From the NCBI GenBank assembly GCA_027335685.1, contig DAHWHN010000046.1:1-44657 (forward strand): a stretch of DNA of 44,657 nt. Reading direction: 5' to 3'. The stretch's first letter is position 1, and each line of letters starts with the position of its first letter. Shown piece by piece: positions 1,196 to 44,657 of the stretch. Position numbers and translations under genes: made by a program. Below the pieces are notes generated by a model. The model made no database searches and had not been told where the DNA came from. It saw only the letters and a program-made list of their open reading frames with translations. Source of the DNA: Acidimicrobiaceae bacterium. GTDB taxonomy: Bacteria; Actinomycetota; Acidimicrobiia; Acidimicrobiales; Bog-793.

Positions 1196-1198
1196 GGG

Positions 1199-2418: not shown

Positions 2419-2888
2419 CTCTCGGCGCCCTCGCCCGTGTCGCCGGCACGGGCGACCCCGGCGATCTGGACGAACGCGAGCCGGATCTGGGCGAGCCCGT
2501 CGCGAAGCGCCGCCGCCGACTCCCCGAGGCGGTCGCCGAGCGTCTCGACGACAGCGCCGAGGGCGTCGATGGCCAGGCGGGCGTCGTCGAGACGCGGCGG
2601 GGACTGCCCGAGATGGAGCGCGCCGAGCTGGAACAGCCCGTAGCAGTGGTTCGCCACGACGTCGCGAGCCGGCGCGCTGGCGAGCTCCTTCTCGATCGCC
2701 GCGATCTCCTCGGCGAGCGCCTCGCGGTCCGGCGCGGCGCCCGGCTCGTCCGGGGGCGGAGCCGACACCGGCGGGCCGGTCGGCTCGGCTGGGCGGCGCG
2801 CGTGCGGCTCGGCGGCACCGCCCGGTGCAGCGACGCCGTCGCCTCGCGGCACGCGGTGCTCGCCCTCGGGTGTCCAAAGGCTGCTCAC
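2415..2888 (-). CDS. Conserved hypothetical protein (DUF1844-like), divergent from infC
   Basis: GTG start (VSSLWTPEGEH) 7 nt after TAGGAT; helical core LFQLGALHL...LDDARLAIDALGAVVETL...LRDGLAQIRLAFV; position opposite infC as in other Actinobacteria. Confidence 0.75.
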   Translation of the reverse strand: MSSLWTPEGEHRVPRGDGVAAPGGAAEPHARRPAEPTGPPVSAPPPDEPGAAPDREALAEEIAAIEKELASAPARDVVANHCYGLFQLGALHLGQSPPRLDDARLAIDALGAVVETLGDRLGESAAALRDGLAQIRLAFVQIAGVARAGDTGEGAES

Positions 2889-2891
2889 GGC

Positions 2892-2901
2892 TGATATCCT
2901 A
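2892..2901. promoter_or_regulatory. Overlapping bidirectional -10 elements
   Basis: + strand TGaTATCCT (extended -10, 2892-2900) facing infC; - strand TAGGAT (2901-2896) 7 nt before the GTG at 2888. Confidence 0.6.
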
Positions 2902-2906
2902 CGGCC

Positions 2907-3095
2907 AAAACGAATAGGGGAAAGCGGAGACGCGTCGTGGTGCGACTCCCACCCGGTCGCCTCGAGAGCTGCGCAAGGTCGCAGCGGGCAGAGCGCGCAC
3001 CGGGTACTCGGTGGTCGAGCCGTGAGGCGTCGCGTTCCCGTGCAGGCTGGCAAGGCGCTCGCCGGCGCGGTTCCCACCGAGAGGAGTGATGCCAG
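2907..3095 (+). promoter_or_regulatory. Structured infC-rpmI-rplT leader (L20-leader-like)
   Basis: AAGCGGAG...CTCCCACC (2922-2953); stems 2951-2957/2999-3005, 2968-2973/2980-2985 and 3007-3014/3074-3081, the last abutting SD GAGGAG. Confidence 0.5.
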
Positions 3096-3782
3096 ATCTC
3101 CACCGCCCCAACGCTCAACGAGCCCCGGATGAACGACCGGATCCGAGCTCGTGAGGTTCGCCTCGTCGACCCCGACGGCAACCAGCTCGGGATCAAGCTG
3201 CTTCCCGAGGCGTTGTCGATCGCACGCCAGATGGACCTCGATCTTGTCGAGGTGGCGCCGCTCGCGTCGCCTCCCGTCTGCCGGATCATGGACTACGGCA
3301 AGTTCAAGTTCGACGAGGCGCAGCGGGCCAAGGAGTCACGCCGGAAGGCGAGCAACGTCGGCATCAAGGAGATGAAGTACCGGCCGAAGATCGGCCAGGG
3401 AGACTTCGACACCAAGCCGCGCCAGGTGGCCCGGTTCCTCGGCGAGGGTCACAAGGTGAAGGTGACGATCATGTTCCGGGGCCGGGAGGTCTTCCACCCC
3501 GAGCTCGGCAAGAAGATCCTCGACCGTATCGCCGAGCAGGTCGACGGGACGGCAAAGGTGGAGTCGGAGCCCCGGCTCGACGGTCGCAACATGGTGATGG
3601 TGCTCGCGCCCGACAAGCGCGCCCGCCAGTCGCAGGCGGCCCGCGTGGCGCCCGGCGACGAGCACGGCGCGCCCGGTGCGGCGAGCGCCGCGAACGGCGA
3701 GACGCCGGCTCCAGGTGGAGCCGGGCAGGATGGCGGCGCGCACGGCGCGCCCGATGAGTCGGACACGACGAAGGAAGGCTGA
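3096..3782 (+). CDS. infC: Translation initiation factor IF-3 (probable ATC start; first ATG at 3129)
   Basis: [46 protein letters not shown]; SD GAGGAG at 3081-3086, in-frame TGA at 3087, in-frame ATC at 3096. Confidence 0.95.
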
Positions 3783-3786
3783 GACG

Positions 3787-3981
3787 ATGCCGAAGATGAA
3801 GACGGACCGCGGTGCCGCCGCGCGGTTCCGGGTGACCGGGAGCGGGAAGATCATGCGCCGCCAGGCGAACCGCGGCCACCTGCTCGAGAAGAAGTCCTCG
3901 GTGCGCACGCGCCGGCTCGGTCGGTCGGTCGAGGTGTCGAGCGGCGACCGCCGCCAGGTCAAGCGCCTGCTCGGCATCTAG
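3787..3981 (+). CDS. rpmI: 50S ribosomal protein L35
   Basis: [24 protein letters not shown]...HLLEKKSS; 64 aa. Confidence 0.97.
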
Positions 3982-3992
3982 CTCGCAGCGAC

Positions 3993-4040
3993 AGCGGCCA
4001 CCCGCGGGTGGCCGCTCGGCGCCGGCTCGATCCCGGCGCC
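3993..4040. repeat. Two adjacent inverted repeats between rpmI and rplT
   Basis: Perfect 24-bp palindrome AGCGGCCACCCGCGGGTGGCCGCT (3993-4016), then GGCGCCGG-N7-CCGGCGCC (4018-4040). Confidence 0.75.
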
Positions 4041-4101
4041 CTGCCAGGTGGCGCGAGCCCCTGGCGCGCAGCCACGTCAGACCACGTCGAAAGGAGCACC
4101 C

Positions 4102-4566
4102 ATGGCCAGGGTCAAGCGCGCCGTCCATGGCAAGAAGCATCGTCGGGCAGTACTCGAACGTGCCAAGGGCTACTACGGGAACAAGTCCCGCTCGTACCGG
4201 GCGGCCAACGAGCAGGTCATGCACTCGCTCCAGTACGCCTACCGTGACAGGCGGGCGCGCAAGGGCGACTTCCGCAAGCTGTGGATCCAGCGGATCAACG
4301 CCGCGGCGCGCCTCGAGGGGATGAGCTACTCGCGGCTCATCGCGGGCCTGCACCGTGCCGGGGTGACCGTCGACCGCAAGAACCTCGCCGACATCGCCGT
4401 GCGTGACCCGCAGTCCTTCGGGCGCATCGTCGCGATCGCACGCGACGCGCTCGGTGACGACGTCGCAGGTGACGACGAGGTCGCGGCGGCCGAGGCGGCT
4501 GCGGACGCGGCCGACGACGCCGTCGTCGTCGAGGAGAGCGACGAGTCGGCGGAGGTCGCCTCCTGA
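4102..4566 (+). CDS. rplT: 50S ribosomal protein L20 with acidic C-terminal tail
   Basis: [48 protein letters not shown]; SD AAGGAG. Confidence 0.97.
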
Positions 4567-5432
4567 CCGACGAGGCCCTCGGACCGCGGCACCAGCGGGT
4601 GCAGCGGCTCCGCAGGCTGCTGCGCCAGCGCAGCGCGCGGCGGGCGGACGGTGCCTTCGTCGTCGAGGGCGTGAAGGTCCTCGCCGCAGCGCTCGACGCG
4701 GGGGCTCCGGTCGAGGCCGTCTACTACGGACCCGAGGCGCTGCGCGCCGCGGTCGCCGTGGCGTTCCTCGAGCGGGCCCGCGCGTCGGGCCTGCGGGTGT
4801 TCGCCCTCCAGGCCGGCGTCGTCGAGCGGGTCGCGGACACGACGACGCCCCAGCCTGTGCTCGCCGTCGTCGGCAGGGTCGACGTCGAGCTCGAGCCGCT
4901 CCTCGATCCAGCCCCGGCCGACTACCCGGCGCCCGTCGTCGTCTGTGTCGACGTCCGGGACCCGGGCAACCTCGGCTCGATCGTCCGCAGCGCGGACGCC
5001 TCGGGTGCGGCGGCCGTCGTCTGTTGCGACGGCAGCGCGGACCTCTACAACCCGAAGACCGTGCGCGCCTCGGCCGGGTCGCTGTTCCACGTCCCGCTCG
5101 TGGCCGAGCGCACCGCCGCGGAGGTCCTCACGGCCCTCGGGCGCGCGCGCTATCTCCGTGTCGGCACGGCAGCGCGCGACGGTGCCGACTACGCCGCCGC
5201 CGAGCTCGGCGGGCGGGTCGCGCTCGTGCTCGGGAACGAAGGGCACGGTCTCGACGACGCCCTGACGCCGTCGATCGACGCGTTCGTCTCGATCCCGATG
5301 GCCGGCCGGGCCGAGTCGCTCAACGTCGCGATGGCGGCGACGGTCCTGTGCTTCGAGCTGGCCCGCCGCCGGCGCCTCCGCGGCACCGATACGGCGCCCC
5401 GCGTGCCGCTCGCGGACCTGCGCCTACGATGA
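4563..5432 (+). CDS. TrmH/SpoU (TsnR-like) RNA 2'-O-methyltransferase (probable CTG start; first GTG at 4599)
   Basis: [50 protein letters not shown]; lies between rplT and pheS. Confidence 0.92.
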
Positions 5433-5437
5433 GCGCG

Positions 5438-6490
5438 ATGGAGCACGTCGCAGCCCCGGACCCGTCTCAGGTCGAGGCGTTCGCCCTGGAGGCGGAGCGT
5501 CGCGTTGTGGCGGCAGCGGACCTCGAGTCGCTCGAGTCCGTCGCGGCAGAGCTGTCGGGCAAGCGCTCGCCGTTCGTGGCCTGGAAGCGCTCGCTCGCCA
5601 CCGTCGACCACGAGGGTCGCCGCGCGCTCGGCCAGGTGCTGAACGGCGCCCTCGCCCGCGTCTCGGCGGCCGTCGAGAGCCGGCGGGCGATCCTCGAGCG
5701 AGCCGCGCGCGACGAGCTCGTCGCGGCCGACCGCCTCGACCTGACCGAGGTCGTGCCGGCCCCGGGAGCGGGCCACCTCCACCTCGTCACCCAGGTGAGC
5801 GAGGAGCTCGAGGACGTCTTCGTCGGGATGGGCTACGAGATCGCGGACGGTCCCGAGGCCGAGACCGAGTGGTACAACTTCACGGCCCTCAACGTGCCTC
5901 GCGACCATCCGGCGCGCAGCATGCAGGACAGCTTCTACCTCGCCGCGGGCGACCGGGAGTCGTACCTGCTGCGGACCCAGACGTCGCCGGTCCAGGTCCG
6001 CCTCCTCGAGCGAGGCGTGCTGCCGCTCTACGCGGTCGCCCCCGGGCGCGTCTACCGGCGCGACACCGCGGACGCGCGCCACCTCCCCGTGTTCCACCAG
6101 ATCGAGGGGATCGTCGTCGACCGCAACGTGACCTTCGGCGACCTCGCGGGCACGATCGACACCTTCGTCACGGCCATCTTCGGCACCGGGATCGAGTCCC
6201 GCCTGCGCCCGGCCTACTTCCCGTTCACCGAGCCGTCCGCGGAGTTCGAGGTCACCTGCACGATCTGCCGGGGTGCCGGCTGCCGCACGTGCAGCCAGAC
6301 GGGTTGGATCGAGCTCGGGGGCTGCGGGCTCGTGCACCCTGCGGTGCTCGAGGCGAGCGGCGTCGACCCCGAGCAGTGGAGCGGCTTCGCGTTCGGCTTC
6401 GGCATCGACCGGTTGGCGATCATGCGGCACGAGATCGAGGACATCCGCAGCTTCGTCGAGAACGACGTCCGCTTCCTCGCGCAGTTCTGA
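5438..6490 (+). CDS. pheS: Phenylalanine--tRNA ligase alpha subunit
   Basis: NFTALN..DHPARSMQDSFY, LRTQTSPVQ, PGRVYR, FHQIEG, YFPFTEPS, GFAFGFGIDRL; ATG 5438 sits 7 nt after TACGAT (alternative ATG at 5429). Confidence 0.97.
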   Translation: MEHVAAPDPSQVEAFALEAERRVVAAADLESLESVAAELSGKRSPFVAWKRSLATVDHEGRRALGQVLNGALARVSAAVESRRAILERAARDELVAADRLDLTEVVPAPGAGHLHLVTQVSEELEDVFVGMGYEIADGPEAETEWYNFTALNVPRDHPARSMQDSFYLAAGDRESYLLRTQTSPVQVRLLERGVLPLYAVAPGRVYRRDTADARHLPVFHQIEGIVVDRNVTFGDLAGTIDTFVTAIFGTGIESRLRPAYFPFTEPSAEFEVTCTICRGAGCRTCSQTGWIELGGCGLVHPAVLEASGVDPEQWSGFAFGFGIDRLAIMRHEIEDIRSFVENDVRFLAQF

Positions 6491-6555
6491 GCGTCGTCTG
6501 TCGGTCCCGCTGACGGTCGGCCAGCCGGCCTCCACATCTACAAGGAAGGGGTGAC

Positions 6556-9147
6556 GTGCGCGTCCCGCTGTCGTGGTTGCAGGATTTCGTACCGGTCCCG
6601 ACGTCGCCGCGGGACGCCGACGCCGTGCGGGAGCTCGGTCGGGTCCTCGACTCGCTCGGCCTCGTCGTCGAGTCCGTCGAGCACGTCGGGGGTGGCCTCG
6701 ACGGCGTCGTGCTCGCCCGTGTGCTCGAGATCCGCCCGATCCCCGGTGCCGAGCGCATCCGCCAGGTCGTCGTCGACGCCGGGGGAGCCGACCCGCAGGA
6801 GATCGTCTGCGGTGCGACGAACTTCGCGGTCGGCGACGTCGTGCCGCTCGCCCGCGTCGGCGCGGAGCTGCCCGGCGGGTTCGTCATCTCCCGGCGCACG
6901 CTGCGCGGGGTCGTGTCCGACGGCATGCTCTGCTCGGCGCGCGAGCTCGGCCTCGGCGGCGACGGCGCGGGCCTTCTCGTGCTCGCCGCGACGGGCTCGC
7001 CGGAGGGGCCCCTGCCCGCCGGCGTCGAGACCGGGATGGCTCTCGCGGACCACCTCGGGATCGTGCCCGACGCGGTGTTCGACATCGCCGTCGAGCCGAA
7101 CCGGCCCGACTGCCTGAGCGTTGCCGGGATCGCCCGGGACCTCGCCGCGCGCCTGCGCCTGCCGTTCGCCGTTGAGGTGCCGGCAGTCGCGCGCTCCGGG
7201 CAGGGCGCAGGCGAGCTCGCGTCGGTGAGGATTGGCGCGCCAGAGGCCTGCCAGCACCTTCTCGGCCGGGTCGTGAGCGGGCTCGTGCCGATGTCGTCGC
7301 CGCCCGAGGTCGCACGCCGGCTCTTGCTCGCCGGGATGCGCCCGATCGGCGCGGTCGTCGACGCGTCGAACTACGTGATGCTCGAGCTCGGCCAGCCGAG
7401 CCATCCCTACGACCTCGACGCGCTCGGCGCGCACGGGCTCTCGGTCCGCTTCGCGCGCCCGGGCGAGCAGCTCGTCACCCTCGACGGCACGGCGAGGGTG
7501 CTCGGGCGCCACACGGACGTGCTCGGACGGACGGCGGACGTGGACGACCTGGTCGTCTGCGACGCGACCGACGCCGTCGTCGGCCTCGCAGGCATCATGG
7601 GCGGAGCCGTGACCGAGGTCGGCGAGGCGACGACGAGGGTCTTGCTCGAGGTCGCCCAGTTCGACCCGGTCGTCGTCGCCCGGACGGCGAAGCGCCAGGG
7701 GCTGCGGACCGAGGCCTCCGCGCGCTTCGAGCGCGGCGTGGACCCGGACGGGTTGGCCCGGGCCGCGGACCGCGTCTGCGCCCTCGTCGCCGAGGCGGCC
7801 CGGCTCCAGGGCGCGCCGTCCCCGGTCGTGGCGCCCGACGACGTCGACGACCACCCGGTGCTCACGCCACGGCGCCACGTGCGCGTCCGCGTCGGGCGCG
7901 TGAACGCCCTGCTCGGTACGTCGCTCTCGACCGGCGACGTCGTCGGCCTGCTCGCGCCGATCGGCTTCGTCGCCACTGCCGAGCCCGACGCGGGCGGCGG
8001 GAACCCGGCCGGCGACGGCGCGGCCGGCGTGCTCGACGTCGTCGTCCCGTCCTACCGACCTGACACCCTTCGTGAAGTCGACGTCGTCGAGGAGGTGGCC
8101 CGCCACGTCGGCTACGAGACGATCACGCCGACGACGCGCCGGTCGCCGTTCGTCGGCAGGCTCGGCGCGCGCAGCACGAGCAGGCGGCGGCTCCGGCGCG
8201 TCCTCGCGGGCCTCGGAGCCCACGAGGCGTGGACGAGCTCGATCGTCGACCCGTCGTCGCTCGCGCGCGCCGGGACCGCGCATCCGGTGGTCGAGATCGC
8301 GAACCCGATGGTCCGCGAGGAGTCCGTGCTGCGCGCCCACCTGCTTCCCGGGCTGCTCGGCTCGCTGCGCCACAACGTCGCGCACCGCAACCCGGCCGTG
8401 CGGATGTTCGAGATCGGGCATGTCTTCTCGCCGTCGGCCGACGACGGCCTGCCCGTCGAGAGGGAGCACGCGGGCGTGCTCTTCGCTGGCCCGGGAGACG
8501 ACGCGGCCAGCGCCGTGCACGGGTTCGAGGTCGTCGTCGAGCAGATGGGCAAGGCGCGCGGCGCCCTCGTGCTCGACCAGCACGTCGGGGCTTCCGAGCC
8601 GGTGCTCGCCCTCGGGACGCACCCGAGCCGGCGCGCCCTTCTGCGTGCGAGCGCCGACCGGGCGGGAGCCGTCGGCTCGTCCCTCGTCGACGTGGCGACA
8701 GCCGGCACCACCGGCACGGTCGTCGGCGTCGTCGGCGAGGTCGACCCGCGCGTGCTCGAGGCCTACGGGATCCCGGGCGACCGCCGGGTCGGCTGGCTCG
8801 TGCTCGACCTCGACGCGTTCGACGACCTGCCGGAGCTCGATCGCCGTGCTCGGCCGGTGAGTCGGTTCCCCTCGAGCGACGTCGACCTGTCGTTCCTGCT
8901 CGACGCCGCGGTCGCCGCGTCCGAGCTCGAAGAGGTGCTGCGCGCGAGCGGAGGGGCGCTGCTCGAGTCCGTGCGGCTCCTCGAGGCGTACCGCGGGCCG
9001 GGCATTGGCGCGGACCGCAGGAGCCTCACCTACCGGCTCCGCTTCTGCGCGCTCGACCGGACGCTCACCGACGCCGACCTCGCCGATCTACGCGCCAGGT
9101 GCATCGCGGCGGCACAGGCGGCACTGCCCGCCACGCTGCGCGCCTGA
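6556..9147 (+). CDS. pheT: Phenylalanine--tRNA ligase beta subunit
   Basis: MRVPLSWL, IVCGATN, GVVSDGMLCSARELG, PNRPDCLS, SARFERGVD, PSYRPD, C-terminal FDX-ACB (DLSF...SLTYRLRF..RTLTD). Confidence 0.97.
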   Translation: MRVPLSWLQDFVPVPTSPRDADAVRELGRVLDSLGLVVESVEHVGGGLDGVVLARVLEIRPIPGAERIRQVVVDAGGADPQEIVCGATNFAVGDVVPLARVGAELPGGFVISRRTLRGVVSDGMLCSARELGLGGDGAGLLVLAATGSPEGPLPAGVETGMALADHLGIVPDAVFDIAVEPNRPDCLSVAGIARDLAARLRLPFAVEVPAVARSGQGAGELASVRIGAPEACQHLLGRVVSGLVPMSSPPEVARRLLLAGMRPIGAVVDASNYVMLELGQPSHPYDLDALGAHGLSVRFARPGEQLVTLDGTARVLGRHTDVLGRTADVDDLVVCDATDAVVGLAGIMGGAVTEVGEATTRVLLEVAQFDPVVVARTAKRQGLRTEASARFERGVDPDGLARAADRVCALVAEAARLQGAPSPVVAPDDVDDHPVLTPRRHVRVRVGRVNALLGTSLSTGDVVGLLAPIGFVATAEPDAGGGNPAGDGAAGVLDVVVPSYRPDTLREVDVVEEVARHVGYETITPTTRRSPFVGRLGARSTSRRRLRRVLAGLGAHEAWTSSIVDPSSLARAGTAHPVVEIANPMVREESVLRAHLLPGLLGSLRHNVAHRNPAVRMFEIGHVFSPSADDGLPVEREHAGVLFAGPGDDAASAVHGFEVVVEQMGKARGALVLDQHVGASEPVLALGTHPSRRALLRASADRAGAVGSSLVDVATAGTTGTVVGVVGEVDPRVLEAYGIPGDRRVGWLVLDLDAFDDLPELDRRARPVSRFPSSDVDLSFLLDAAVAASELEEVLRASGGALLESVRLLEAYRGPGIGADRRSLTYRLRFCALDRTLTDADLADLRARCIAAAQAALPATLRA

Positions 9148-19244: not shown

Positions 19245-19268
19245 GCACACGCCGCGCGGCTCGTCGCG

Positions 19269-19351
19269 TGCCCGGAGCGGGACTCGAACCCGCACGCCCT
19301 TTCGGACAGCGGCTTTTGAGGCCGCCGCGTCTGCCATTCCGCCATCCGGGC
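19269..19351 (-). tRNA. tRNA-Leu(CAA), CCA not encoded
   Basis: GCCCGGA/TCCGGGC acceptor stem, TGGCGGAATGGCAGACGC D-arm, GCGGC-CTCAAAA-GCCGC anticodon arm, long variable arm, GGTTCGAGTCC. Confidence 0.97.
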
Positions 19352-36388: not shown

Positions 36389-37260
36389 ACGACGGCGGCC
36401 CCGCCGTCGTCGCGATCGGCGGCGGGCACGGGCTCGCCGCGACCCTGACGGCGGTCCGCTGCTACGCGTCGGCGGTCACGGCGGTCGTGTCGGTTGCCGA
36501 CGACGGCGGCTCGAGCGGGAGGCTCCGGCAGCTGCTCGGCATCCCCGCGCCCGGCGACCTGCGCAAGTGCCTCGGCGCGCTCGTCGCCGAGCGCTCGATC
36601 CTCGCTGACGCGCTCGAGCACCGGTTCGCGGGTGCGGGCGAGCTCGACGGGCACGCGTTCGGCAACCTACTGATCGCCGCCCTCGCGAGCACCGCAGGCA
36701 GCTTCGTCGACGCGATGCGCGAGGCGTGCCGCCTGCTCGGCACCGTGGGCCCCGTGCTCCCCGCGACGACGGTGCCGGTCGTGTTGACGGCCGAGGCGGC
36801 CGGTTGCGAGCTCGAGGGCCAGGTCCGGATCATGGCCAGCTCGGGCATCACCCGCGTCTCGCTCGTGCCGGAGGACGCCGAGGTGCCCGAGGCGGTGACC
36901 GCGGCGATCGCCTCGGCCGACCAGGTCGTCGTCGGTCCGGGCTCGCTCTACACGAGCGTGCTCGCCGCGCTCGCGCCCGCGCCGATCCGCCACGCGCTCC
37001 GATCGAGCGGCGCGCGCGTCGTCTACGTCTGCAACCTGCGCGAGCAGCCGCCCGAGACGGCGGGCTACGACGTCGGCGACCACCTGCGCGCGTTGCGCGC
37101 GCACGGCGTCGACCCGGACTGGGTCGTGGCGGACCCGGAGGCGATCGCGGTCGGCGAGCTCGCGGGCGGCCCCCGGTTGTGGACCGGTCGCCTCGCCGCG
37201 CCCGGCGGTGCCGTGCACGACCCGGTCCTGCTCTGCGGGGCGTTGCGCAGCTGCGACTGA
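36385..37260 (+). CDS. yvcK: YvcK/GlmR (CofD-like) UDP-GlcNAc-binding protein
   Basis: IGGGHGL, VSVADDGGSSGRLR, PGDLRKCL, GHAFGNL, GPGSLYTSV, HDP. Confidence 0.93.
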   Translation: MNDGGPAVVAIGGGHGLAATLTAVRCYASAVTAVVSVADDGGSSGRLRQLLGIPAPGDLRKCLGALVAERSILADALEHRFAGAGELDGHAFGNLLIAALASTAGSFVDAMREACRLLGTVGPVLPATTVPVVLTAEAAGCELEGQVRIMASSGITRVSLVPEDAEVPEAVTAAIASADQVVVGPGSLYTSVLAALAPAPIRHALRSSGARVVYVCNLREQPPETAGYDVGDHLRALRAHGVDPDWVVADPEAIAVGELAGGPRLWTGRLAAPGGAVHDPVLLCGALRSCD

Positions 37261-37464
37261 GCCTCGGTTGGCTCTGCCCAGGCGGTCGGCCACCGCTGGC
37301 CGCCACCGCTGGCCGCCACCGCTCGGTCGGCCACAAGGTGACGCCGGGAGCCGGGAGCCGGGTTGCGTATCGCGGCCCGCGTGGGCGAGATTGTCTGGGC
37401 CGGTGCGGGGGCTGGCACGGGGCGCGTCGCGCGCCGCGTCCGACGAGATCGAGGTGGTGTCGGT

Positions 37465-38481
37465 ATGACCGTGCGTGTCGCAGTGAACGGATTTGGCCGG
37501 ATCGGACGGAACTTCCTGCGGGCCGCGCGGGGATCGGGTGCCGACGTCGAGATCGTGGCGATCAACGACCTCGTCTCGGTCGAGGCGAACGCGCACCTGC
37601 TCCGCTACGACTCGACGCACGGACGCTTCGGCGGCGAGGTCGCGGTCTCCGAGCGCGGCCTCGTGGTCGACGGCCGGGAGATCGCCGTCTACGCGGAGCG
37701 CGAGCCTGCGAAGCTGCCCTGGGGCGACTTGGGTGTCGACGTCGTGATCGAGTCGACGGGTCGCTTCACCAAGCGGGCCGCCGCCGCAGCGCACCTCGAC
37801 GCCGGGGCGGTGCGTGTCATCGTGTCGGCACCGTCCGACGACTCCGACGCGACGTTCGTCGTCGGGGTGAACGACGACACCTACGACCCCGCGAAGCACG
37901 TGATCGTCTCGAACGCGTCGTGCACGACGAACTGCTTCGTCCCGATGGTCAAGGTCCTCGACGACGCCTTCACGGTGCGCCACGGACTCATGACGACCGT
38001 GCACGCCTACACCAACGACCAGGAGCTGCTCGACCTCGCGCGGGACAACCTCCGACGGGCGCGCGCCGCTGCGGTCAACATCGTGCCGACCTCGACGGGC
38101 GCGGCGCGCGCGACAGGGCTGGTCCTGCAGGCCATGCGGGGCAAGCTCGACGGGACGTCGCTGCGGGTCCCGGTGAAGGACGGCTCGATCACGGACTTCA
38201 CCGCGATCGTCGGGGCGGAGGTCGACGCCGCGGCGGTCAAGGCCGCCTTCAAGGCGGCGGCGACGGCAGGACCGCTCGCGAAGGTCCTCGACTACAGCGA
38301 CGAGCCGCTCGTCTCGAGCGACATCGTCGGCTCGCCGGCGTCGTGCACCTTCGACGCCGAGCTCACGATGGCCCTCCGGCTCGGCGACGGCACGACGCTC
38401 GTCAAGGCCTTCGGCTGGTACGACAACGAGTGGGGCTACGCGAGCCGGCTGGTCGACCTCGCCGTCACGATGGGCGCCTGA
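37465..38481 (+). CDS. gap: Glyceraldehyde-3-phosphate dehydrogenase
   Basis: VNGFGRIGR, ESTGRF, SNASCTTNC, PTSTGAA, WYDNEWGY; SD GAGGTGG. Confidence 0.98.
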   Translation: MTVRVAVNGFGRIGRNFLRAARGSGADVEIVAINDLVSVEANAHLLRYDSTHGRFGGEVAVSERGLVVDGREIAVYAEREPAKLPWGDLGVDVVIESTGRFTKRAAAAAHLDAGAVRVIVSAPSDDSDATFVVGVNDDTYDPAKHVIVSNASCTTNCFVPMVKVLDDAFTVRHGLMTTVHAYTNDQELLDLARDNLRRARAAAVNIVPTSTGAARATGLVLQAMRGKLDGTSLRVPVKDGSITDFTAIVGAEVDAAAVKAAFKAAATAGPLAKVLDYSDEPLVSSDIVGSPASCTFDAELTMALRLGDGTTLVKAFGWYDNEWGYASRLVDLAVTMGA

Positions 38482-39644
38482 TGGGCACCCGCCTGCCACT
38501 GCTCGAGGACCTCCCGGACGTCGCGGGCAAGAAGGTCCTGCTGCGCGCCGACTTCAACGTCCCGGTCGCAACCGCGCCGGACGGCTCGCAGACCATCACG
38601 GACGACTACCGGATCACCTCGACGCTCCCGACGATCGAGTGGCTGCGCAGCCACGGCGCGGACGTCACGGTCTGCACGCATCTCGGCCGCCCCGAGGGCC
38701 GGCCGGACCCCGCCTTCTCCCTCGACCCGGTGCGCGCGCGCCTCGAGGAGCTCGCGCCGGGGGTCCGGCTGCTCGAGAACCTGCGGTTCTCGCCAGGCGA
38801 GGAGGCCAACGACCCGGCCTTTGTCGACATGCTCGTCGAGGGCCAGGACCTGTACGTCAACGACGCGTTCGCGGTCTCGCACCGCGCGCACGCGTCGGTC
38901 GTCGGCCCGCCCGCGCGCCTGCCGTCGGCGGCGGGTCGTCTCCTCGCGCGCGAGGCCGAGGTCCTCTCGGGGCTCCTCGACGCGCCGGAGCGGCCATTCG
39001 TCGCGATCGTCGGGGGCGCGAAGATCGGCGACAAGCTCGGCGTGCTGCGCGCGCTGTCGGCCAAGGTCGACGTGCTCGTCGTCGGCGGTGGCATGAGCTA
39101 CACGTTCTTCAAGGCGCTCGGTCACGAGGTCGGCGCATCGCTGCTCGACGAGCGGCACCTCGCCTCCTGCGCCGAGCTGCTCGCCGGTGACGTCGAGGTC
39201 CTGCTCCCGCTCGACGTCGTCGCCCTGGCCCCGGGGTCGCACATCCACCGCGGCCAGCCGGCGCCCGACGGCGAGCGCACGGAGGTCTACGGCCGCGACA
39301 TCCCCGACGGCTGGGAGGCGGCCGACATCGGGCCGGAGACCCGCCGCCGCTACGCGGAGGTGATCGCGACGGCGCGCACCGTGCTGTGGAACGGGCCGAT
39401 GGGTGCGTTCGAGGACGAGCGGCTGTCGGCCGGGACCCGCGCCGTCGCCGAGGCGGTCGCCGCGTGCCCGGGCTTCACGGTCGCCGGTGGCGGGGACTCG
39501 GTCGCCGCGATCAACAGCTACGGGCTCGCGGACCGCATCGACCACGTCTCGTCCGGGGGAGGCGCCTCACTCGAGCTGATCGAGCTCGGCGACCTCCCGG
39601 GGCTCGCGGCCCTGCGCGCCGCGTCGAACGCGCCGCGCGCGTGA
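38481..39644 (+). CDS. pgk: Phosphoglycerate kinase
   Basis: RADFNVP, HLGRP, LLENLRF, VNDAF..HRAHAS, GGAKI.DK, WNGPMG.FE, GGGDS, GGGASLE. Confidence 0.97.
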   Translation: MGTRLPLLEDLPDVAGKKVLLRADFNVPVATAPDGSQTITDDYRITSTLPTIEWLRSHGADVTVCTHLGRPEGRPDPAFSLDPVRARLEELAPGVRLLENLRFSPGEEANDPAFVDMLVEGQDLYVNDAFAVSHRAHASVVGPPARLPSAAGRLLAREAEVLSGLLDAPERPFVAIVGGAKIGDKLGVLRALSAKVDVLVVGGGMSYTFFKALGHEVGASLLDERHLASCAELLAGDVEVLLPLDVVALAPGSHIHRGQPAPDGERTEVYGRDIPDGWEAADIGPETRRRYAEVIATARTVLWNGPMGAFEDERLSAGTRAVAEAVAACPGFTVAGGGDSVAAINSYGLADRIDHVSSGGGASLELIELGDLPGLAALRAASNAPRA

Positions 39645-39654
39645 CGGCCGCGCG

Positions 39655-40452
39655 ATGAGCCCCGCGGCGGTGTCCGATCCCGGCCGGACCGTGCTTGTGA
39701 GCGGTAACTGGAAGATGAACGAGAACCACTTCGAGGCTCTCCGGCTCGTCCAGGAGCTCGCCGCGATGCTGCGCGTCTCGGGCGTGCCGGACGGCCGCGA
39801 GGTGAGCATCCACCCGCCGTTCACCTCGCTCCGCACGGTGCAGACGGCCGTCGAGACCGACAAGGTGCCGGTCGCGCTCGGTGCGCAGAGCTGCCACCAC
39901 GAGATGCGGGGCGCGTTCACCGGCGAGGTGAGCGCGGAGATGCTCGCGAAGCTCAACGTCGCCTACGTCATCGCCGGGCACTCCGAGCGCCGGATGCACT
40001 GCGGCGAGACCGACGCCCTCGTCCGGGCCAAGGTCGACGCGATCCTCGTCCAGGGGATGCGGCCGATCGTCTGCGTCGGCGAGGTGCTCGAGCAGCGCCA
40101 GAGCGGCCAGGCCGAGCCCCACGTCCGCCGCCAGGTGCTCGACGCGCTCTCCGGGCGTTCGGCCGAGACGATCGGCAGCGTCGTCATCGCCTACGAGCCG
40201 ATCTGGGCGATCGGGACCGGCGAGACGGCGAGCGTCGAGGACGCGGAGCAGATGTGCGCGGTCATCCGCGACGAGGTCGCGAAGCTCGCCGGGCCCGGTG
40301 CCGCGGCGTCCGTGCGCATCCAGTATGGCGGGTCCGTGACGCCGGAGAGCGCGGGAGGCCTGCTCGACGCGGACAACATCGACGGCCTGCTCGTCGGCGG
40401 TGCGAGCCTCGACGCGGAGCGGTTCGTCTCGATCGTGCGGGCCACGAGGTGA
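39655..40452 (+). CDS. tpiA: Triosephosphate isomerase
   Basis: GNWKMN, GAFTGEVS, GHSERR, AYEPIWAIGTG, YGGSV, LVGGASL. Confidence 0.98.
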   Translation: MSPAAVSDPGRTVLVSGNWKMNENHFEALRLVQELAAMLRVSGVPDGREVSIHPPFTSLRTVQTAVETDKVPVALGAQSCHHEMRGAFTGEVSAEMLAKLNVAYVIAGHSERRMHCGETDALVRAKVDAILVQGMRPIVCVGEVLEQRQSGQAEPHVRRQVLDALSGRSAETIGSVVIAYEPIWAIGTGETASVEDAEQMCAVIRDEVAKLAGPGAAASVRIQYGGSVTPESAGGLLDADNIDGLLVGGASLDAERFVSIVRATR

Positions 40453-40565
40453 GCACGCCCCGGCTCGCAGGGCGAGGACGGCGCCGGGAGCGGGGCTGCT
40501 AGCCTGCGTCGGTTGTCCGGCGCCCGGGGGGTCGACGCGCCGGCGCCGTCTCGGGAGGTGACGCC

Positions 40566-40796
40566 GTGTTGACCGACATCCTTGTGGGCATCGAAGTGGC
40601 TTCGTCGTTCGGGCTCGTGCTGCTGATCCTGCTCCACAGCGGTCGCGGCGGCGGGCTCTCGGACATGTTCGGGTCCTCGGTCGGCTCCGCGGCTGCGGGG
40701 TCGACCGTGGCCGAGCGCAACCTCGACCGGCTCACCGTCACCGTCGCCGTCGTGTTCGCCTTCACGTCGGTCATCATCGGCCTGCGGTGGGGCTGA
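40566..40796 (+). CDS. secG: Preprotein translocase subunit SecG
   Basis: LILLHSGRGGGLSDMFG...AERNLDRLT, two transmembrane segments; follows tpiA; SD GGAGGTG. Confidence 0.95.
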   Translation: MLTDILVGIEVASSFGLVLLILLHSGRGGGLSDMFGSSVGSAAAGSTVAERNLDRLTVTVAVVFAFTSVIIGLRWG

Positions 40797-42685
40797 GCCG
40801 CCGCCTCTTTGCCCTAGCGCTGGCCTGGGCGCTTCTTCTCGGCGGCTCCGCCGGTGTCGTCGCGCTCACGGCGTCGACGACAGCCGGCGCGGCATCGGTG
40901 TCCGCACCGCGTGGCGGACCCGGAGCCGCGTCGACGACGACGGACCCGGCTCCTCGTGGCGCGGTGGTCGGGAGTGGCAGCGTCACCTCGGGGTCCGGCA
41001 GCACGGTGACGATCGCGGTCCCGAGCATCCCGGCGAGCTTCGACGACCTGACACCGGCCGGCAGCGGGCGGGTCGCGCAGATGATCACCGAGCAGGTGCT
41101 GCCGCGCCCGTTCGTCGTCGGCCCGAGCCTCCAGCCGATCCTCGACTCGAACTTCGTCACCTCCGCGTACCTGACCTCGCTCAGCCCGCAGACCATCGTC
41201 TACACCATCGCTTCGGGGGCCCGGTGGTCCGACGGCTTGCCGGTCACCGCGTCCGACTTCTCCTACTTCTGGCACGCCCAGCTCGCTGCTGGTGCGACGC
41301 TGCCGGCGGACGACCCGGTGACGGGCTACCAGGACATCGCGTCGGTGACCGGGTCGAACGGCGGCCGGACCGTCACGGTCGTGTTCACCCAGCCGTACTC
41401 GGACTGGGAGGCGCTCTTCGCCGGCCTGTTGCCGGCGCAGGTCGCCGAGAGCAGCGGTCCAGCGGCCTTTGCGGCGTCGCGCCGGGCCGGCTATGTCTCG
41501 GCGGGGCCCTACGAGATCGCGTCGGTCGTGCCGGGCGTCGAGGTCGTGCTCGAGCGGAACCGCGCGTACTGGGGCCCACCGGCCCACGTGCAGACGATCG
41601 TGTTCCGGGTCGTGCGTGGCGACCGTGCCGTGCTCGCCGCGCTCGGGAGCGGCGCGGTCGACATCGGCCAGGTGACGCCGGGTCGGGCGGAGTCGAGCCT
41701 CGTCGGGGACGCGGCGGGGGCCCTGACGTCCGAGACGGCGCTCGGCCCGGTGCTCTGGCAGCTCGTGTTCAACCTCGCGCGCCCGGCACTCGCGCCGCCC
41801 GCCGCGCGCCGCGCGATCGGCACGGCGATCGACCGCAACGAAGTGCTCGCGGACAGTGCCGGCCTGCTGTTCGCCGACACCCCGCGCAGCGACAACCGCC
41901 TCTACGCCGCAGGCGAGGCGAACAGCGTCGGGCACGGTGCCGCGTACCGGTACGCGAACGGCTCGGAGGCCGACAGCATGCTCTCGACGCTCGGCTACAC
42001 GGTCGCCACGAACGGCATGCTGCTCACGCCGGCCGGCAAGCCGTTCGTGCTCACCCTCGACGTCCCGTCGGGCAACCCGACGATCGCGACGGCCGCCGGG
42101 CTCATCCAGGCCGAGCTGCTCCAGGCGGGCATCGCCGTCGTCCTACGGCAGGTGGCGGAGTCGCAGCTGCTCGGCAGCGTCCTGCCGAGCGGCGGCTACG
42201 AGATGGCCCTCGCTCCCTACCCGGTGCTCGCCTTCCCGTCCGAGACCGAGATCCTCTACACCGACCCGGTGGGGCCGACTCCGCTCGAGTCGGCGGTCCC
42301 GGGTGCGGCGACACCGACGACCCTGCCCGGAACGCTTCCCGCGGCGACGAAGGCGGTCGATGCCGAGAGCGGCGCGGTCGTGTCGGGCACGGTGAGCCGG
42401 GACGTGCTCGGCTTCAACGACCCGGTCGTGACGGCGCTCTACGGCCGAGCCATCGCCCAGCAGGCGCCCCTGCCGGCGGCGAGCGCCTACAACGCCGTCG
42501 ACGCGCGCCTGTGGTTCGACCTCCCGACCCTCCCGTTGTTCCAGATGCCGGTCACGCTCGTCTCGAGCTCCGACATCATCGGCGTCGCGAACACCGACAC
42601 GCCCGTCGGTCCGCTCTGGAACGCCCAGGACTGGGTCGTCGAGACCGTGACGCCGTCGGTGACGTCGACGGCCGGGACCAGCTGA
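40787..42685 (+). CDS. Family 5 (OppA/DppA-like) extracellular solute-binding protein
   Basis: Hydrophobic N-terminus; ARWSDGLPVTASDF, SAGPY, LERN..YWG, LVFN, RRAIGTAIDR, IQAELLQAGI. Confidence 0.88.
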   Translation: MGLSRRLFALALAWALLLGGSAGVVALTASTTAGAASVSAPRGGPGAASTTTDPAPRGAVVGSGSVTSGSGSTVTIAVPSIPASFDDLTPAGSGRVAQMITEQVLPRPFVVGPSLQPILDSNFVTSAYLTSLSPQTIVYTIASGARWSDGLPVTASDFSYFWHAQLAAGATLPADDPVTGYQDIASVTGSNGGRTVTVVFTQPYSDWEALFAGLLPAQVAESSGPAAFAASRRAGYVSAGPYEIASVVPGVEVVLERNRAYWGPPAHVQTIVFRVVRGDRAVLAALGSGAVDIGQVTPGRAESSLVGDAAGALTSETALGPVLWQLVFNLARPALAPPAARRAIGTAIDRNEVLADSAGLLFADTPRSDNRLYAAGEANSVGHGAAYRYANGSEADSMLSTLGYTVATNGMLLTPAGKPFVLTLDVPSGNPTIATAAGLIQAELLQAGIAVVLRQVAESQLLGSVLPSGGYEMALAPYPVLAFPSETEILYTDPVGPTPLESAVPGAATPTTLPGTLPAATKAVDAESGAVVSGTVSRDVLGFNDPVVTALYGRAIAQQAPLPAASAYNAVDARLWFDLPTLPLFQMPVTLVSSSDIIGVANTDTPVGPLWNAQDWVVETVTPSVTSTAGTS

Positions 42686-42819
42686 CCGGTGCCGAGGTGC
42701 TGCGGCACCGCCCCGGCGCGTGGTGGCGGCGCGGGGGGACGGCGTGTCCCCGGCGGCGCGGGGCGTCCCCGGCGGCGCGCTAATCTCCGTGTGCTCGATC
42801 GGCACGACCGATGGAGCTG

Positions 42820-44325
42820 TCACGTCGGAGTGGCGGAATAGGCAGACGCGCTAGCTTGAGGGGCTAGTGCCCGAAAGGGCGTGGGGGTTCGAGTCCCCCC
42901 TCCGACACCAGCAATCTGCGACTGTCGTCCACCGAGCCCCACCTCGTCGAGCCGGACGTTGAGCGAGGGCACGCCGTGGATGCGAACCTCCAGGTGGTCC
43001 GGGCAGACGACGACCGCCTCGACCAGCTCCTCGACGAGGACGCGCCGCTCCGCATCGGTGGCGCCGTCCCACATCACGTCGAGGTCGAGCTCGCGTAGAA
43101 GAGCGGCGGCCTGCTCGAAGCGCTCGGCCAGCTCGTTCGCGTGGCTTGCTTCGCTCGCGACACCTGCCACCTCGGCGCGCACGGCCTCGATGCTGCGCGT
43201 GAGGGACTGCTCCTGCTCCCCGAACAGCTCGGCACTGATCCTGTCTGCGTAGTACAGCTCGAGGAGCTTGCGTCGCCGTTCCGTAAGATCGGCGAGCGCG
43301 GCCGCCGGCCGTTGTCCGGGCGAGCGACGGCCCTGGCGGTCCGTCCGCTCGCCCTGGACCAGCTGTCGACGGATCGCATCCCGTAGCTCGTCGTCACGGG
43401 AGACGAGTCGCAGCCCGAGCCGCGCAGCGCGGTGCAGCCCGATGTTCGTGCGTCTCGGCTGAGCACAGCCACGACCACGTGAGCGGCACCGGTACATGGA
43501 TCGCCCGTCGCCGTTCGTCTCGATGGCCATGCGCTTGCCGCACAGGCCGCACAGCACACGACCTGACAGGAGGTCGCCGCCGCGTCGTCGACCGGGCACG
43601 TGTCCCCGGTGCGCGGCATCGAACTCCTCGGACGTGACGAGTGCCTCGTGGTGACCGGGGAACCACTCGCCGTTGAGCACGACCTCGCCGAGGTAGATGC
43701 GCGAGTCGAGGATCGCTCCGACGGTCGAGTACTTGATCCCGGTGCGCTCCTCGATGCGGCGCTGGCTCAATCCCTCGGCCCGCAACCGGAAGACCTCGCG
43801 GACGAGGGGAGCATCGCTGTTCGCGACGAGCTCGCCCTCGACGAGGTCGTAGCCGGTCTTCGGTCGGTTCAACCACTTGCCCTCGCGTACCGCCTGGTGC
43901 ATGCCCATGCGAACGTTCTCGGCGAGCTGCTCCCGATAGAACTGGGCGAAGGATCCGAGGATGTTGTAGAACATCCGCCCAGTCGCTGACGAGAGGTCGA
44001 TCTTCTCCGTGAACGAGTGCAGCGCGACCCCGGCCGCACCGAAGGTGTCGGCGAGCTCGATCAAGTCGCCAAGGTTGCGCGAGAGCCGGTCGAGCCGCCA
44101 AGTGAGCACGTGAGCGACGTGGCCGGCTCGGACCATGGCGAGAAGCTGCTGCAGACCCGGGCGGTCGGTGTCCTTGCCTGACCGGCCGGGATCGGCGACG
44201 ACCGTGACCGGCCCGAGCTCATGGAGCTCCGCGTAGCTCCTGAGCTTGTCCGCCTGGCCCTCTATCGAGAAGCCCTCCGCCGCCTGCTCCTCGGTCGAGA
44301 CCCGGCAATAGGCCACGGTCAGCAT
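42820..44325 (-). CDS. Large serine recombinase (integrase)
   Basis: YCRVSTEEQ (catalytic Ser), SGK..RPGL, RLDRLSR, recombinase domain (GYDL..IYLG), zinc ribbon LLSGRVLCGLCG..YRC..GC, coiled coil; SD AAGGAG. Confidence 0.95.
   Translation of the reverse strand: MLTVAYCRVSTEEQAAEGFSIEGQADKLRSYAELHELGPVTVVADPGRSGKDTDRPGLQQLLAMVRAGHVAHVLTWRLDRLSRNLGDLIELADTFGAAGVALHSFTEKIDLSSATGRMFYNILGSFAQFYREQLAENVRMGMHQAVREGKWLNRPKTGYDLVEGELVANSDAPLVREVFRLRAEGLSQRRIEERTGIKYSTVGAILDSRIYLGEVVLNGEWFPGHHEALVTSEEFDAAHRGHVPGRRRGGDLLSGRVLCGLCGKRMAIETNGDGRSMYRCRSRGRGCAQPRRTNIGLHRAARLGLRLVSRDDELRDAIRRQLVQGERTDRQGRRSPGQRPAAALADLTERRRKLLELYYADRISAELFGEQEQSLTRSIEAVRAEVAGVASEASHANELAERFEQAAALLRELDLDVMWDGATDAERRVLVEELVEAVVVCPDHLEVRIHGVPSLNVRLDEVGLGGRQSQIAGVGGGTRTPTPFRALAPQASASAYSATPT
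42824..42910 (+). tRNA. tRNA-Leu(GAG) with encoded CCA
   Basis: GTCGGAG/CTCCGAC acceptor stem, CTAGC-TTGAGGG-GCTAG anticodon arm, long variable arm, GGTTCGAGTCC, ACCA end; TAATCT -10 at 42781. Confidence 0.97.
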
Positions 44326-44416
44326 CACGGCTCTCCTTCTCCGCTCGTCCTCCGGTCAGCCGGAGCGCGATCCGCACGAGGATGTCGGCGACGCGACCGT
44401 AGTCCGGCTCGGTCAC
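44219..44416 (-). CDS. Small hypothetical ORF (65 aa) overlapping the integrase start
   Basis: GTG overlaps the stop of the upstream ORF (GTGA); amphipathic helix YGRVADILVRIALRL. Confidence 0.4.
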   Translation of the reverse strand: MTEPDYGRVADILVRIALRLTGGRAEKESRDADRGLLPGLDRGAGGGGLLDRGPGGQAQELRGAP

Positions 44417-44655
44417 CGGATCGCGTCCTGTCGTCGACGTGCAGCCACCCGGGACGCGAAAGCCTCGCCGCGCTCTCGCTCGTAGCCCTTCAGATGCCTC
44501 GCAAGCGCACTGCATGCTGCATCGGGACTTTCGTTGCCCGTGAGCGCAGCGAAGGCGACGACGTAGCCGTTGAGCGCCGGCATGAGCTTGCGCAGCGATC
44601 CGGCGACCTTGCCCGCGTAGACGCGCTCGATCCCGGCTCGGTCCTCCGCGATGCG
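44413..44655 (-). CDS. C-terminal 80 aa of an element-encoded protein (possibly a replication initiator), truncated by window end
   Basis: Open frame RIAEDRAGIERVYAGKVAGSLRKLMPALNGYVVAFAALTG...ERGEAFASRVAARRRQDAIR*, read by hand and absent from the ORF track; function is a guess. Confidence 0.6.
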   Translation of the reverse strand, partial: RIAEDRAGIERVYAGKVAGSLRKLMPALNGYVVAFAALTGNESPDAACSALARHLKGYERERGEAFASRVAARRRQDAIR

Positions 44656-44657
44656 TG

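Follow-up and report, generated by a model that had tools for sequence, protein, structure and literature searches.

The Integrase–tRNA-Leu Junction

The window analysed here is a stretch of 44,657 nucleotides (nt) of DNA from an Acidimicrobiaceae bacterium, and corresponds to the whole of contig C148 in assembly G000 (153 contigs, 2.39 Mb, 72.7% G+C, 82% complete). Close to one end of the window, the open reading frame (ORF) of a large serine recombinase, hereafter the integrase, runs on the minus strand through a complete tRNA-Leu(GAG) gene that is read in antisense. This junction, the small mobile element to which the integrase would belong, and the way in which the integrase frame ends at the host tRNA are the subject of the present analysis. 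The features at the junction are listed below, where the 80 loci are the related loci described in the next section.

42820 to 44328, minus strand: integrase ORF, 502 amino acids (aa) from a GTG start (ORF list, Pfam, AlphaFold2)
42820 to 42822, minus strand: TGA stop codon that ends the read-through form, 1 nt upstream from the 5′ end of the tRNA
42824 to 42910, plus strand: tRNA-Leu(GAG), complete, with CCA encoded (ARAGORN); the B′ side of the probable left attachment site (attL), its 3′ end being held in common with the element
42889 to 42891, minus strand: codon CGA (Arg480) on the T-loop; the plus-strand G at 42891 decides between CGA (read-through) and TGA
42893 to 42908, minus strand: 16-nt core common to the tRNA 3′ end and the integrase 3′ end (core scan, 80 loci)
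42912 to 42924, minus strand: 13-nt motif, the putative outer half-site of the P arm, in integrase codons ...QSQI..., 3 nt before the core
44413 to 44655, minus strand: last 80 codons of the gene that precedes the integrase, the rest being lost at the contig end (matched by tblastn in 59 of the 80 loci)

ARAGORN identifies two tRNA genes in the window, tRNA-Leu(CAA) at 19268–19351 on the minus strand and tRNA-Leu(GAG) at 42824–42910 on the plus strand, and the integrase ORF spans all 87 nt of the latter. The initial annotation of this DNA had described a frame that stays open through the 87 antisense nucleotides and stops just upstream of the tRNA, and both ARAGORN and the ORF list agree with this description exactly. 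The remaining two antisense frames of the tRNA are closed by internal stops at 42851 and 42864. In the integrase frame, a plus-strand A at 42891 would yield TGA immediately after the sequence ...GVGGGT. At its other end, the ORF has an alternative ATG start at 44323–44325, which gives a protein of 501 aa.

The integrase is a large serine recombinase by its domain order, consisting of a resolvase domain, a recombinase domain, and a zinc ribbon with an inserted coiled coil. Pfam assigns these to Resolvase PF00239 (E 4.2e-39, residues 5–152), Recombinase PF07508, and Zn_ribbon_recom PF13408. The catalytic motifs ...YCRVSTEEQ... and RLDRLSR are invariant or nearly so in an alignment of 89 sequences, and in the zinc ribbon, Cys260, Cys263, and Cys288 show no variation and Cys281 has a conservation of at least 90%. 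The AlphaFold2 model built with this alignment has a mean pLDDT (predicted local distance difference test) score of 86.4 and shows long helices at residues 341–360 and 366–413, followed by three strands up to residue 459. The fold ends near residue 463, and residues 472–502 have pLDDT values below 50; everything encoded by the P arm and beyond is predicted by the model to be a disordered appendage of the integrase.

A Family of Integrases Beside tRNA-Leu

A protein search returned 794 matches with E ≤ 0.001 among 8000 scored candidates, and the best 120 cluster representatives are 62–100% identical and mostly 475–479 aa long. The initial annotation had proposed that the C-termini of homologous recombinases be aligned, and had foreseen that a T-loop reading TTCAA in place of the window's TTCGA would create a TGA codon and end the protein at VGGGT. 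The comparison bears this out, as 76 of the 120 representatives end at the T-loop position (...GGGT, ...GGGI, or ...GEGT); 42 others have different tails, and 2 could not be parsed.

At least 555 relatives were found in genome contigs when one genome per species was scanned, and the 80 best loci were analysed together with their flanking DNA. Almost all of these loci come from metagenome-assembled genomes (MAGs) of Acidimicrobiia, with a few from Mycobacteriales, Frankiales, and Microthrixaceae; the Mycobacteriales and Frankiales MAG members are loci L028, L032, L035, and L037. At 48 of the 80 loci, a complete tRNA-Leu gene lies on the opposite strand behind the core at the integrase 3′ end. 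Within this group, 27 integrases are intact and stop at the T-loop TGA with a 22-nt overlap (25 recognised by pattern, plus L031 and L032, which the pattern missed), 16 are broken by frameshifts or premature stops, 4 read the tRNA in another frame (L038, L039, L053, and L061), and 1 is odd (L072). The core is present with no full tRNA behind it at 19 loci with an intact-length integrase and at 4 with a broken one, while the ORF runs off the contig at 6 loci and no core was found at 3. This distribution suggests an integrase family that belongs mainly to the Acidimicrobiia, with some members in Mycobacteriales and Frankiales, and that is specialised for tRNA-Leu(GAG). Phage and plasmid collections contained no close relative of the integrase, all matches being below 38% identity.

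Two individual loci deserve description in their own right. At L054 (11418–11500), the integrase stops in the T-loop, and the tRNA beyond is truncated at the anticodon loop and continues into unrelated DNA; its displaced tRNA-Leu 3′ half looks as if a second element, one that targets the anticodon loop, had inserted there. At L010 (11336–11470), the tRNA lies beside a decayed integrase and has an internally duplicated T-arm/acceptor segment, with two cores 49 nt apart.

A Probable attP Site across the End of the Integrase Frame

The core corresponds to the antisense of the T-stem 3′ strand, the acceptor 3′ strand, and the discriminator. Nine loci (L004, L006, L013, L021, L036, L042, L046, L054, and L079) have a distal core in the same orientation, that is, a direct repeat, 4.8–7.2 kb upstream of the integrase stop. 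These distal cores have host-like DNA on their left and a conserved non-tRNA arm on their right, and this right arm carries an inverted repeat of the 13-nt P-arm motif, which makes the two motifs partners at the opposite ends of the related elements. The enclosed element DNA is lower in G+C (0.58–0.64) than the right flank (0.62–0.70) in all nine cases. The distal copies often depart from the tRNA from core nucleotide 12 on (CC for GG), so that the exchange is bounded to core nucleotides 1–11 (42898–42908).

The form of the attP site was examined by pooling 22 attP-like sites, 13 of them contiguous and 9 rebuilt by script (L005 was left out of the reconstructions because the locus is too short), and by comparing them with 200 shuffles. 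The palindrome score peaks at a centre after core nucleotide 9, with 6.95 of 17 positions against 5.27 ± 0.20 for the shuffles (maximum 5.91); this centre falls between positions 42900 and 42899 of the window. In the nine rebuilt sites, 8–14 of the 17 arm positions are complementary, and the rebuilt attP of the relatives are imperfect palindromes of ~50 bp centred in the acceptor stem, which points to the anatomy of serine-integrase attP sites in these relatives. In the relatives, attB and attP are identical over 10–19 nt; this exceeds the usual length because the element has to restore the tRNA end. Translation through the rebuilt attP gives an excised-form tail that differs from that of the integrated form and is 7–38 aa longer in all nine reconstructions, the integrated form ending two residues past the exchange region, at the host TGA.

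On this evidence, the junction in the window is very probably the attL of a small integrative element (5–7 kb in relatives) that has inserted in the tRNA-Leu(GAG) 3′ end, with attP straddling the end of the integrase ORF. The element would carry a probable rolling-circle Rep gene, the large serine integrase, and variable cargo, and the last ~12 integrase codons (...S-Q-x-x-G-V-G-G) would form the P arm and core. Strand exchange would occur within an 11-nt stretch of the acceptor-stem 3′ strand and the T-stem junction, and the tRNA would be restored because the element carries the same 3′-terminal bases. The sequence past about codon 476 would then be supplied by the P′ arm in the free circle and by the antisense host tRNA after integration. 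In nearly all hosts, the T-loop TTCAA would provide TGA in antisense, and the integrated gene would end with ...GVGGGT; in the window, the T-loop is TTCGA, so the stop is absent and the frame is open to 1 nt beyond the tRNA 5′ end, which adds 23 residues. We infer that the integrase would itself catalyse the insertion, and we infer likewise the exact crossover dinucleotide and the form of the window's own attP.

Several observations weigh against this interpretation. The nearest suitable distal core was chosen for each integrase, and L006 and L013 have several cores. The 13 sites at which an integrase leads straight into non-tRNA DNA gave no consistent palindrome centre; most of these are junctions with other elements in tandem arrays and not the integrase's own attP. 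Large serine recombinases are not expected to target attL or attR, which leaves the formation of such arrays unexplained. Neither an attR nor a P′ arm could be found in the 153 contigs of the window's assembly, and no clean empty site was found for any element-bearing genome.

The window's own assembly was searched at several levels for the far end of the element, where the initial annotation had expected a duplicated 3′ fragment of tRNA-Leu. No such fragment was found in G000, in which the far end is unassembled: blastn-short with the tRNA region matched only other tRNA genes, a core scan allowing up to two mismatches and a tblastn search with the tail of the homologous protein P0122 gave no match, and no partner contig was found for the 128 nt downstream of the tRNA in the same-genus assembly G002. 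The contig ends 330 bp upstream of the integrase start, and the remainder of the element is not on it; a public contig of 4229 nt extends 2.4 kb beyond this end. Because the far end is not assembled, the integration of the window's copy is read from its relatives only. The earlier proposal of an attP within the integrase 3′ end, with tails that depend on the integration state, is supported in the relatives by their distal cores, palindromic attP sites, and nine pairs of differing tails.

The search for unoccupied sites yielded partial results. In G002, the tRNA has the T-loop TTCAA and is followed by non-integrase DNA, which makes it a probable empty site, cut by the contig end; the integrase is absent from both G002 and G001, another assembly of the genus (searched with P0122). 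In the genome of L013 (G041), the host flank beyond a 57-kb array of cores was recovered in 5 of 25 relatives, always beside the arm of another element and never beside a bare tRNA. Logan contigs showed no branch at the core on the integrase side and no joint of attP or attB form, and as these contigs drop rare variants, they are uninformative on excision.

C-Terminal Tails of the Free and Integrated Forms

At least three versions of the same ORF end exist: one that stops in the T-loop, one that reads through the tRNA, and one with a different tail. P0122, a 114-aa fragment from another assembly, shares 87% identity with the window's integrase in its first 98 residues, and runs on past ...GVGGGT into a 21-residue tail that ends in ...QVA. 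The tails in the family as a whole fall into at least six unrelated families, and most of them come from tandem-array junctions, not from proven circles.

The overlap of attP and the integrase gene may be neutral, a reading that seems to us to have an even chance of being correct. In this case, attP does no more than border the integrase gene, the frame remains open as far as the first chance stop in DNA of 60–73% G+C, and the tail has no function in either state. A fold that ends near residue 463, with disorder predicted after residue 472, fits such a tail, as do the variation of the tails in length (0–46 aa and more) and in sequence, the four integrases that use another tRNA frame (L038, L039, L053, and L061), and the decay of 16 of the 48 tRNA-adjacent copies in any event. 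The conserved ...GVGGGT is fully explained by the tRNA sequence. Two properties of the tails are not predicted by chance, namely an enrichment of -AA and -VA ends, and a motif that is held in frame over four spacings and accompanied by a compensating shift in L038.

The enrichment is seen in both proteins and genomic sites. Tails that extend past the T-loop position occur in 42 homologue clusters, of which 15 end in AA and 21 in [AV][AV], compared with a background of 1.1–2.0% and 2.1–3.5%, respectively, among all stop-terminated frames (G000 and the 80 loci). Across 59 different right arms of non-tRNA DNA, 9 of 50 in-frame tails with a length of 7 aa or more end in AA and 14 of 50 in [AV][AV], whereas the other two frames of the same arms give 1/58 and 3/55 for AA, and 3/58 and 4/55 for [AV][AV]. 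The tags of transfer-messenger RNA (tmRNA) in the same genus and family read AEPQLALAA, and those of relatives end in ...LALAA or ...LLAA; one tail family ends in ...QALAA, and others in ...PLAA, ...LPAA, ...EVAA, and ...WVA. ARAGORN found no tmRNA gene in G000, an 82%-complete assembly, and found one in all eight relatives searched; the tags were therefore taken from relatives.

The second property was revealed by a frame-blind DNA search. The motif R-hydrophobic-x-P-W is separated from the core by 33 nt in 12 sites, 39 nt in 4 sites, and 42 nt in 2 sites, and at each of these spacings it is in the integrase frame. Two L038 sites have the motif at 32 nt, and there the frame of the adjacent integrase is itself displaced by one base. 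The tail family with the P-W motif varies least at the second codon position (256, 133, and 241 differences at positions 1, 2, and 3), and the codon-position test gives only a modest signal, the excess of third-position changes being weak in all three tail families. The locus L038 is unusual in other respects: it has three cores ~4.6 kb apart (2182, 6865, and 11410), two of them behind integrase 3′ ends that read the core shifted by one base; its right arm is one base shorter, which keeps W-R-L-R-P-W in frame; and ARAGORN identifies the adjacent tRNA as Leu(AAG), not Leu(GAG).

These two properties would be accommodated if the exchange of tails acted as a built-in switch, a proposal raised in the initial annotation and made more specific here, which we regard as tentative and somewhat doubtful. 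The integrase of the free, replicating circle would carry an ssrA-like tag (...LAA or ...VA) or a Trp motif, and integration would replace this tail with ...GGGT and the stop borrowed from the T-loop, resetting the stability or directionality of the enzyme. The tail is predicted to be disordered, as tags are, and the resemblance of ...QALAA to the tmRNA tags of relatives, the preference of AA ends for the integrase frame, and the constrained second codon positions point in the same direction. There is also a precedent in integration-dependent immunity, in which a stop at attL strips an ssrA-like tag from a repressor, according to the accessible parts of PMC8092301 and PMC6109161. If such a switch exists, it would be an integration-dependent switch acting on a serine integrase, and would possibly lessen the need for a separate directionality factor. 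Excision by large serine recombinases requires such a factor, and none was identified here.

A considerable part of the data argues against the switch. The tails belong to several unrelated families, and the D-W-R...P-W family, which on P-arm similarity is the best guess for the element in the window, does not end in AA. Seven right arms have TGA at a T-loop-like position, as in the tRNA, such that the tail is unchanged on integration, and of the nine sites in the loci that end in AA, eight come from a single family. The conservation lies partly in the DNA itself, as the motif ACTGGCG is conserved across arm classes that read it in different frames. The weak third-position excess and the origin of most tails from junctions that are not shown to be true attP sites count on the same side.

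The Base at Position 42891

The read-through of the tRNA in the window depends on the T-loop, which reads TTCAA in 54 of 55 tRNA-Leu genes beside or near an integrase in the 80 loci (L040 has TTCGA) and in all 18 tRNA-Leu(GAG) genes of further relatives. In the protein collection, the 90% cluster of the window's integrase has four members, P0001, P0121, P0122, and P0123. P0001 (478 aa, on 6 Logan contigs, the longest of 4229 nt) and P0123 (478 aa, on 1 ENA contig) both end with GVGGGT, and P0121, the 501-aa read-through form, occurs only on the window's own contig; the shorter form is thus found on seven contigs and the longer on one. Because the 478-aa forms end with ...GVGGGT, they need a stop at the place where the window has CGA.

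Twenty public sequencing runs from eight studies (mine drainage, tailings, and sediment) carry this stretch, with a best share of sampled words of 0.98 and with all of the words in none. The Logan contigs of four runs from four studies were compared with positions 41800–44657 of the window. In these runs, the host-side contigs stop at 42848/42849 and the integrase-side contigs begin at 42882–42884, and each of the latter has exactly one differing letter, placed near the 42882–42914 end; the difference must be near the contig end because none is listed further in. The 32 nt between the two sets of contigs (42850–42881) have a depth of ~1000–8000 against 7–18 for the flanks, a 100- to 500-fold excess, and are a part of the tRNA that is common to many organisms in the samples. 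An exact 39-mer of the integrase/tRNA junction in the window had no match in metagenome or viral contig collections. On the host side, an insertion of 2 nt follows position 42761 in a single Logan contig from each of two runs.

The protein lengths and the single difference together suggest that the base at 42891 in the other assemblies is A (TTCAA, TGA). A caveat on the other side is that this base was not directly seen in them, as differences near contig ends go unlisted. TGA is probably the main allele, and the G of the window would be a minor allele or a consensus error within a tRNA sequence shared by many organisms. The read-through reported in the initial annotation therefore stands for the window as it is written and does not carry over elsewhere, where seven other contigs have the 478-aa form and where it is probably not the main allele; it hangs on one base in a multi-organism repeat, and is not to be trusted without reads.

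It is unlikely that the G at 42891 is real in this population, and equally hard to credit that the 502-aa protein is the true product here, in which case the host tRNA would have G57 and the extra 23 residues would matter. The sequence of the window itself speaks for such a product, a purine at this position of the T-loop is normal for tRNAs, and there are parallels elsewhere: a second natural read-through of a full tRNA occurs in the protein set in P0007 (529 aa, on a 649-kb contig), which crosses its tRNA in the same frame, and the tRNA of L040 likewise has TTCGA. Outweighing these are the ratio of seven contigs to one, the one-letter difference at that end in all four compared runs, the lack of any run with all sampled words, the TTCAA of the same-genus tRNAs, and the predicted disorder of the tail, while the 100- to 500-fold depth contributed by other organisms inside the tRNA invites consensus errors. 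That the contig is chimeric, the assembler having linked the host tRNA to the integrase element of another organism through common tRNA sequence, might be suspected from its end soon after the integrase and from the breaks of the Logan contigs on either side of the deep stretch, and is very improbable, since the host-side and integrase-side depths track each other across the four runs (8.98/7.91, 17.9/15, ~8.8/7.2, and ~10/9.6), which fits one genome, and since the same integrase–tRNA adjacency recurs in 48 of the 80 loci, many of them on contigs of 0.1–5 Mb.

Flanking Genes, Cargo, and Tandem Arrays

On the host side of the junction (36700–42685), the ORFs, named from translations, stand in the order to be expected of gap, pgk, tpiA, and secG; after them comes the gene for a secreted substrate-binding-like protein of 632 aa, which ends 140 nt before the tRNA. 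The region 42000–42915, which covers the 3′ part of this gene and the tRNA, matches the same-genus assemblies G001 and G002 at 78% DNA identity, and tRNA-Leu(GAG) sits behind the same substrate-binding-protein gene in both. The spacer between that gene and the tRNA (42686–42823) holds a near-repeat of GGCGGCGCGGGG..GTCCCCGGCGGCGCG.

On the element side, the gene upstream of the integrase encodes a protein of ~360 aa in relatives, and ends ~90–100 nt before the integrase in nearly all of the 59 matching loci. No Pfam, PHROG, or NCBIfam family was found for the fragment in the window; full-length relatives likewise gave no Pfam or NCBIfam family and one weak PHROG match to 'endonuclease' (E 8.6e-6), and a profile search of PDB sequences gave chance-level matches only. 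For a full-length relative, the nearest ESM-Atlas clusters carry Rep_trans PF02486 with a score of 0.98, the ten best belonging to one family or clan, and in L079 this position is occupied by a RepSA initiator (E 5.8e-116). The upstream gene is therefore a candidate for, and probably encodes, a rolling-circle replication initiator.

A scan of 38 ORFs from nine elements revealed a cargo of an N6/N4 DNA methylase, an FkbM methyltransferase, an insertion sequence (IS) transposase, a Na+/H+ exchanger, an ion channel, Mrr, a HEPN protein, and a RAMA-domain protein. Neither a tyrosine integrase nor a member of an FtsK/Tra-like transfer family is encoded among these ORFs. As the scanned ORFs contain no FtsK-like transfer gene, the elements are not full integrative and conjugative elements of actinomycetes (AICEs), and are better called small integrative, probably replicative islands. 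The cargo of L004, L042, and L046 is defence- or restriction-like (N6/N4 methylase, Mrr, HEPN RiboL-PSP, and RAMA-domain protein), and such small islands may serve as defence carriers.

Several elements can be found at one tRNA, and arrays of cores in one orientation occur downstream of the tRNA in several genomes. Downstream of tRNA-Leu(GAG), five cores in the same orientation extend over 57 kb in G041 (contig C3, 555771–613124; L109–L112) and over 18 kb in G043 (contig C12, 141717–160021; L113–L114). These arrays hold at least six right-arm classes, and the differing classes imply a stacking of several element lineages at a single tRNA. Another arm that recurs, in which the core is followed by TCGGTACAA..CTCCACG, occurs three times in L006 (540, 2829, and 3673), and L095, L096, and L099 have a similar GTACGG..CCCCACGCG motif immediately downstream of the tRNA. 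The motifs of these four loci may be the ends of another element family at the same site.

Comparison with Known Systems

For the insertion of large DNA, serine integrases are the principal tools, and the control of their direction is a central question. The arrangement described here would be a natural case of an enzyme that differs between the free and the inserted state, with a stop codon taken from a host tRNA. The short attB, consisting of the tRNA-Leu(GAG) 3′ end that is present across Acidimicrobiia and some Actinomycetes, and the small Rep–Int module suggest possible vectors for poorly tractable Actinomycetota.

The integrase has the same domain order as those of phiFC1, Bxb1, and phiC31, and the att sites of its relatives are similarly ~50 bp long with a short core and imperfect inverted repeats; its best identity in the phage and plasmid collections is below 38%. 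To our knowledge, the attP of characterised phage serine integrases lies outside the integrase ORF, and in the literature searched, mostly outside subscription journals, no serine integrase with attP inside its ORF was found described; the accessible part of PMC8092301 does not report such an arrangement. The combination of a tRNA-Leu-specific serine integrase family, an ORF containing attP, and a stop lent by the T-loop is well supported by sequence comparison, and was not found described for serine integrases in that literature. Known serine integrases mostly target protein-coding genes, according to the accessible part of PMC6109161.

The nearest counterparts by target are the eight Mycobacterium elements of Ghinet et al. 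2011, whose serine recombinases integrate in one tRNA-Leu gene (available text of PMC3218068). The same text describes serine-recombinase integration in tRNA genes as rare, citing phiRSM1 in tRNA-Ser, and by that account the conserved tRNA 3′ end targeted by the present family is a rare site for serine recombinases. In both cases, a large serine recombinase targets a tRNA-Leu gene in Actinobacteria; the two are likened by description, not by sequence. The elements differ in that those described here are 5–7 kb long with no transfer gene in the 38 scanned ORFs. Of the three components by which AICEs are defined, namely integration, replication, and FtsK-like transfer, the integrase is present, a Rep-like gene is a candidate, and no FtsK/Tra gene was found among those ORFs. 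The overlap of attP with the integrase and the stop supplied by the host are not mentioned for the Mycobacterium AICEs in the available text of PMC3218068.

In the myxophage Mx8, attP lies inside int, and integration gives int a new 3′ end (accessible portion of PMC6070905). As far as that portion goes, the present family is alike in having attP within the integrase coding sequence and in acquiring a new 3′ end upon integration. The Mx8 integrase belongs to the tyrosine recombinases, and more of its length is exchanged; in contrast, the enzyme here is a serine recombinase in which only the disordered tail after the fold would be exchanged and the new stop is provided by the antisense tRNA T-loop.

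The integration-dependent immunity of BPs, Brujita, and their relatives offers a further parallel. There, according to the accessible parts of PMC8092301 and PMC6109161, attP is located close to the 3′ end of the repressor gene, an ssrA-like -AA tag is present on the free form, and the protein is truncated by a stop at attL; the integrases of those mycobacteriophages also end in -AA, and attB can be the 3′ end of a tRNA gene transcribed toward the truncated gene. The integrase family resembles this type in having attP in the 3′ end of a gene and a stop at attL, which is the T-loop TGA in 27 intact relatives and is replaced by CGA in the window. It differs in that the affected gene is the serine integrase itself, as against a repressor accompanied by a tyrosine integrase in BPs, and in that ssrA-like ends are seen here in some subfamilies only. 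If the tails of the free form were degradation tags or activity motifs, the switch known from the mycobacteriophage repressor would be extended to the integrase itself, and to the serine class.

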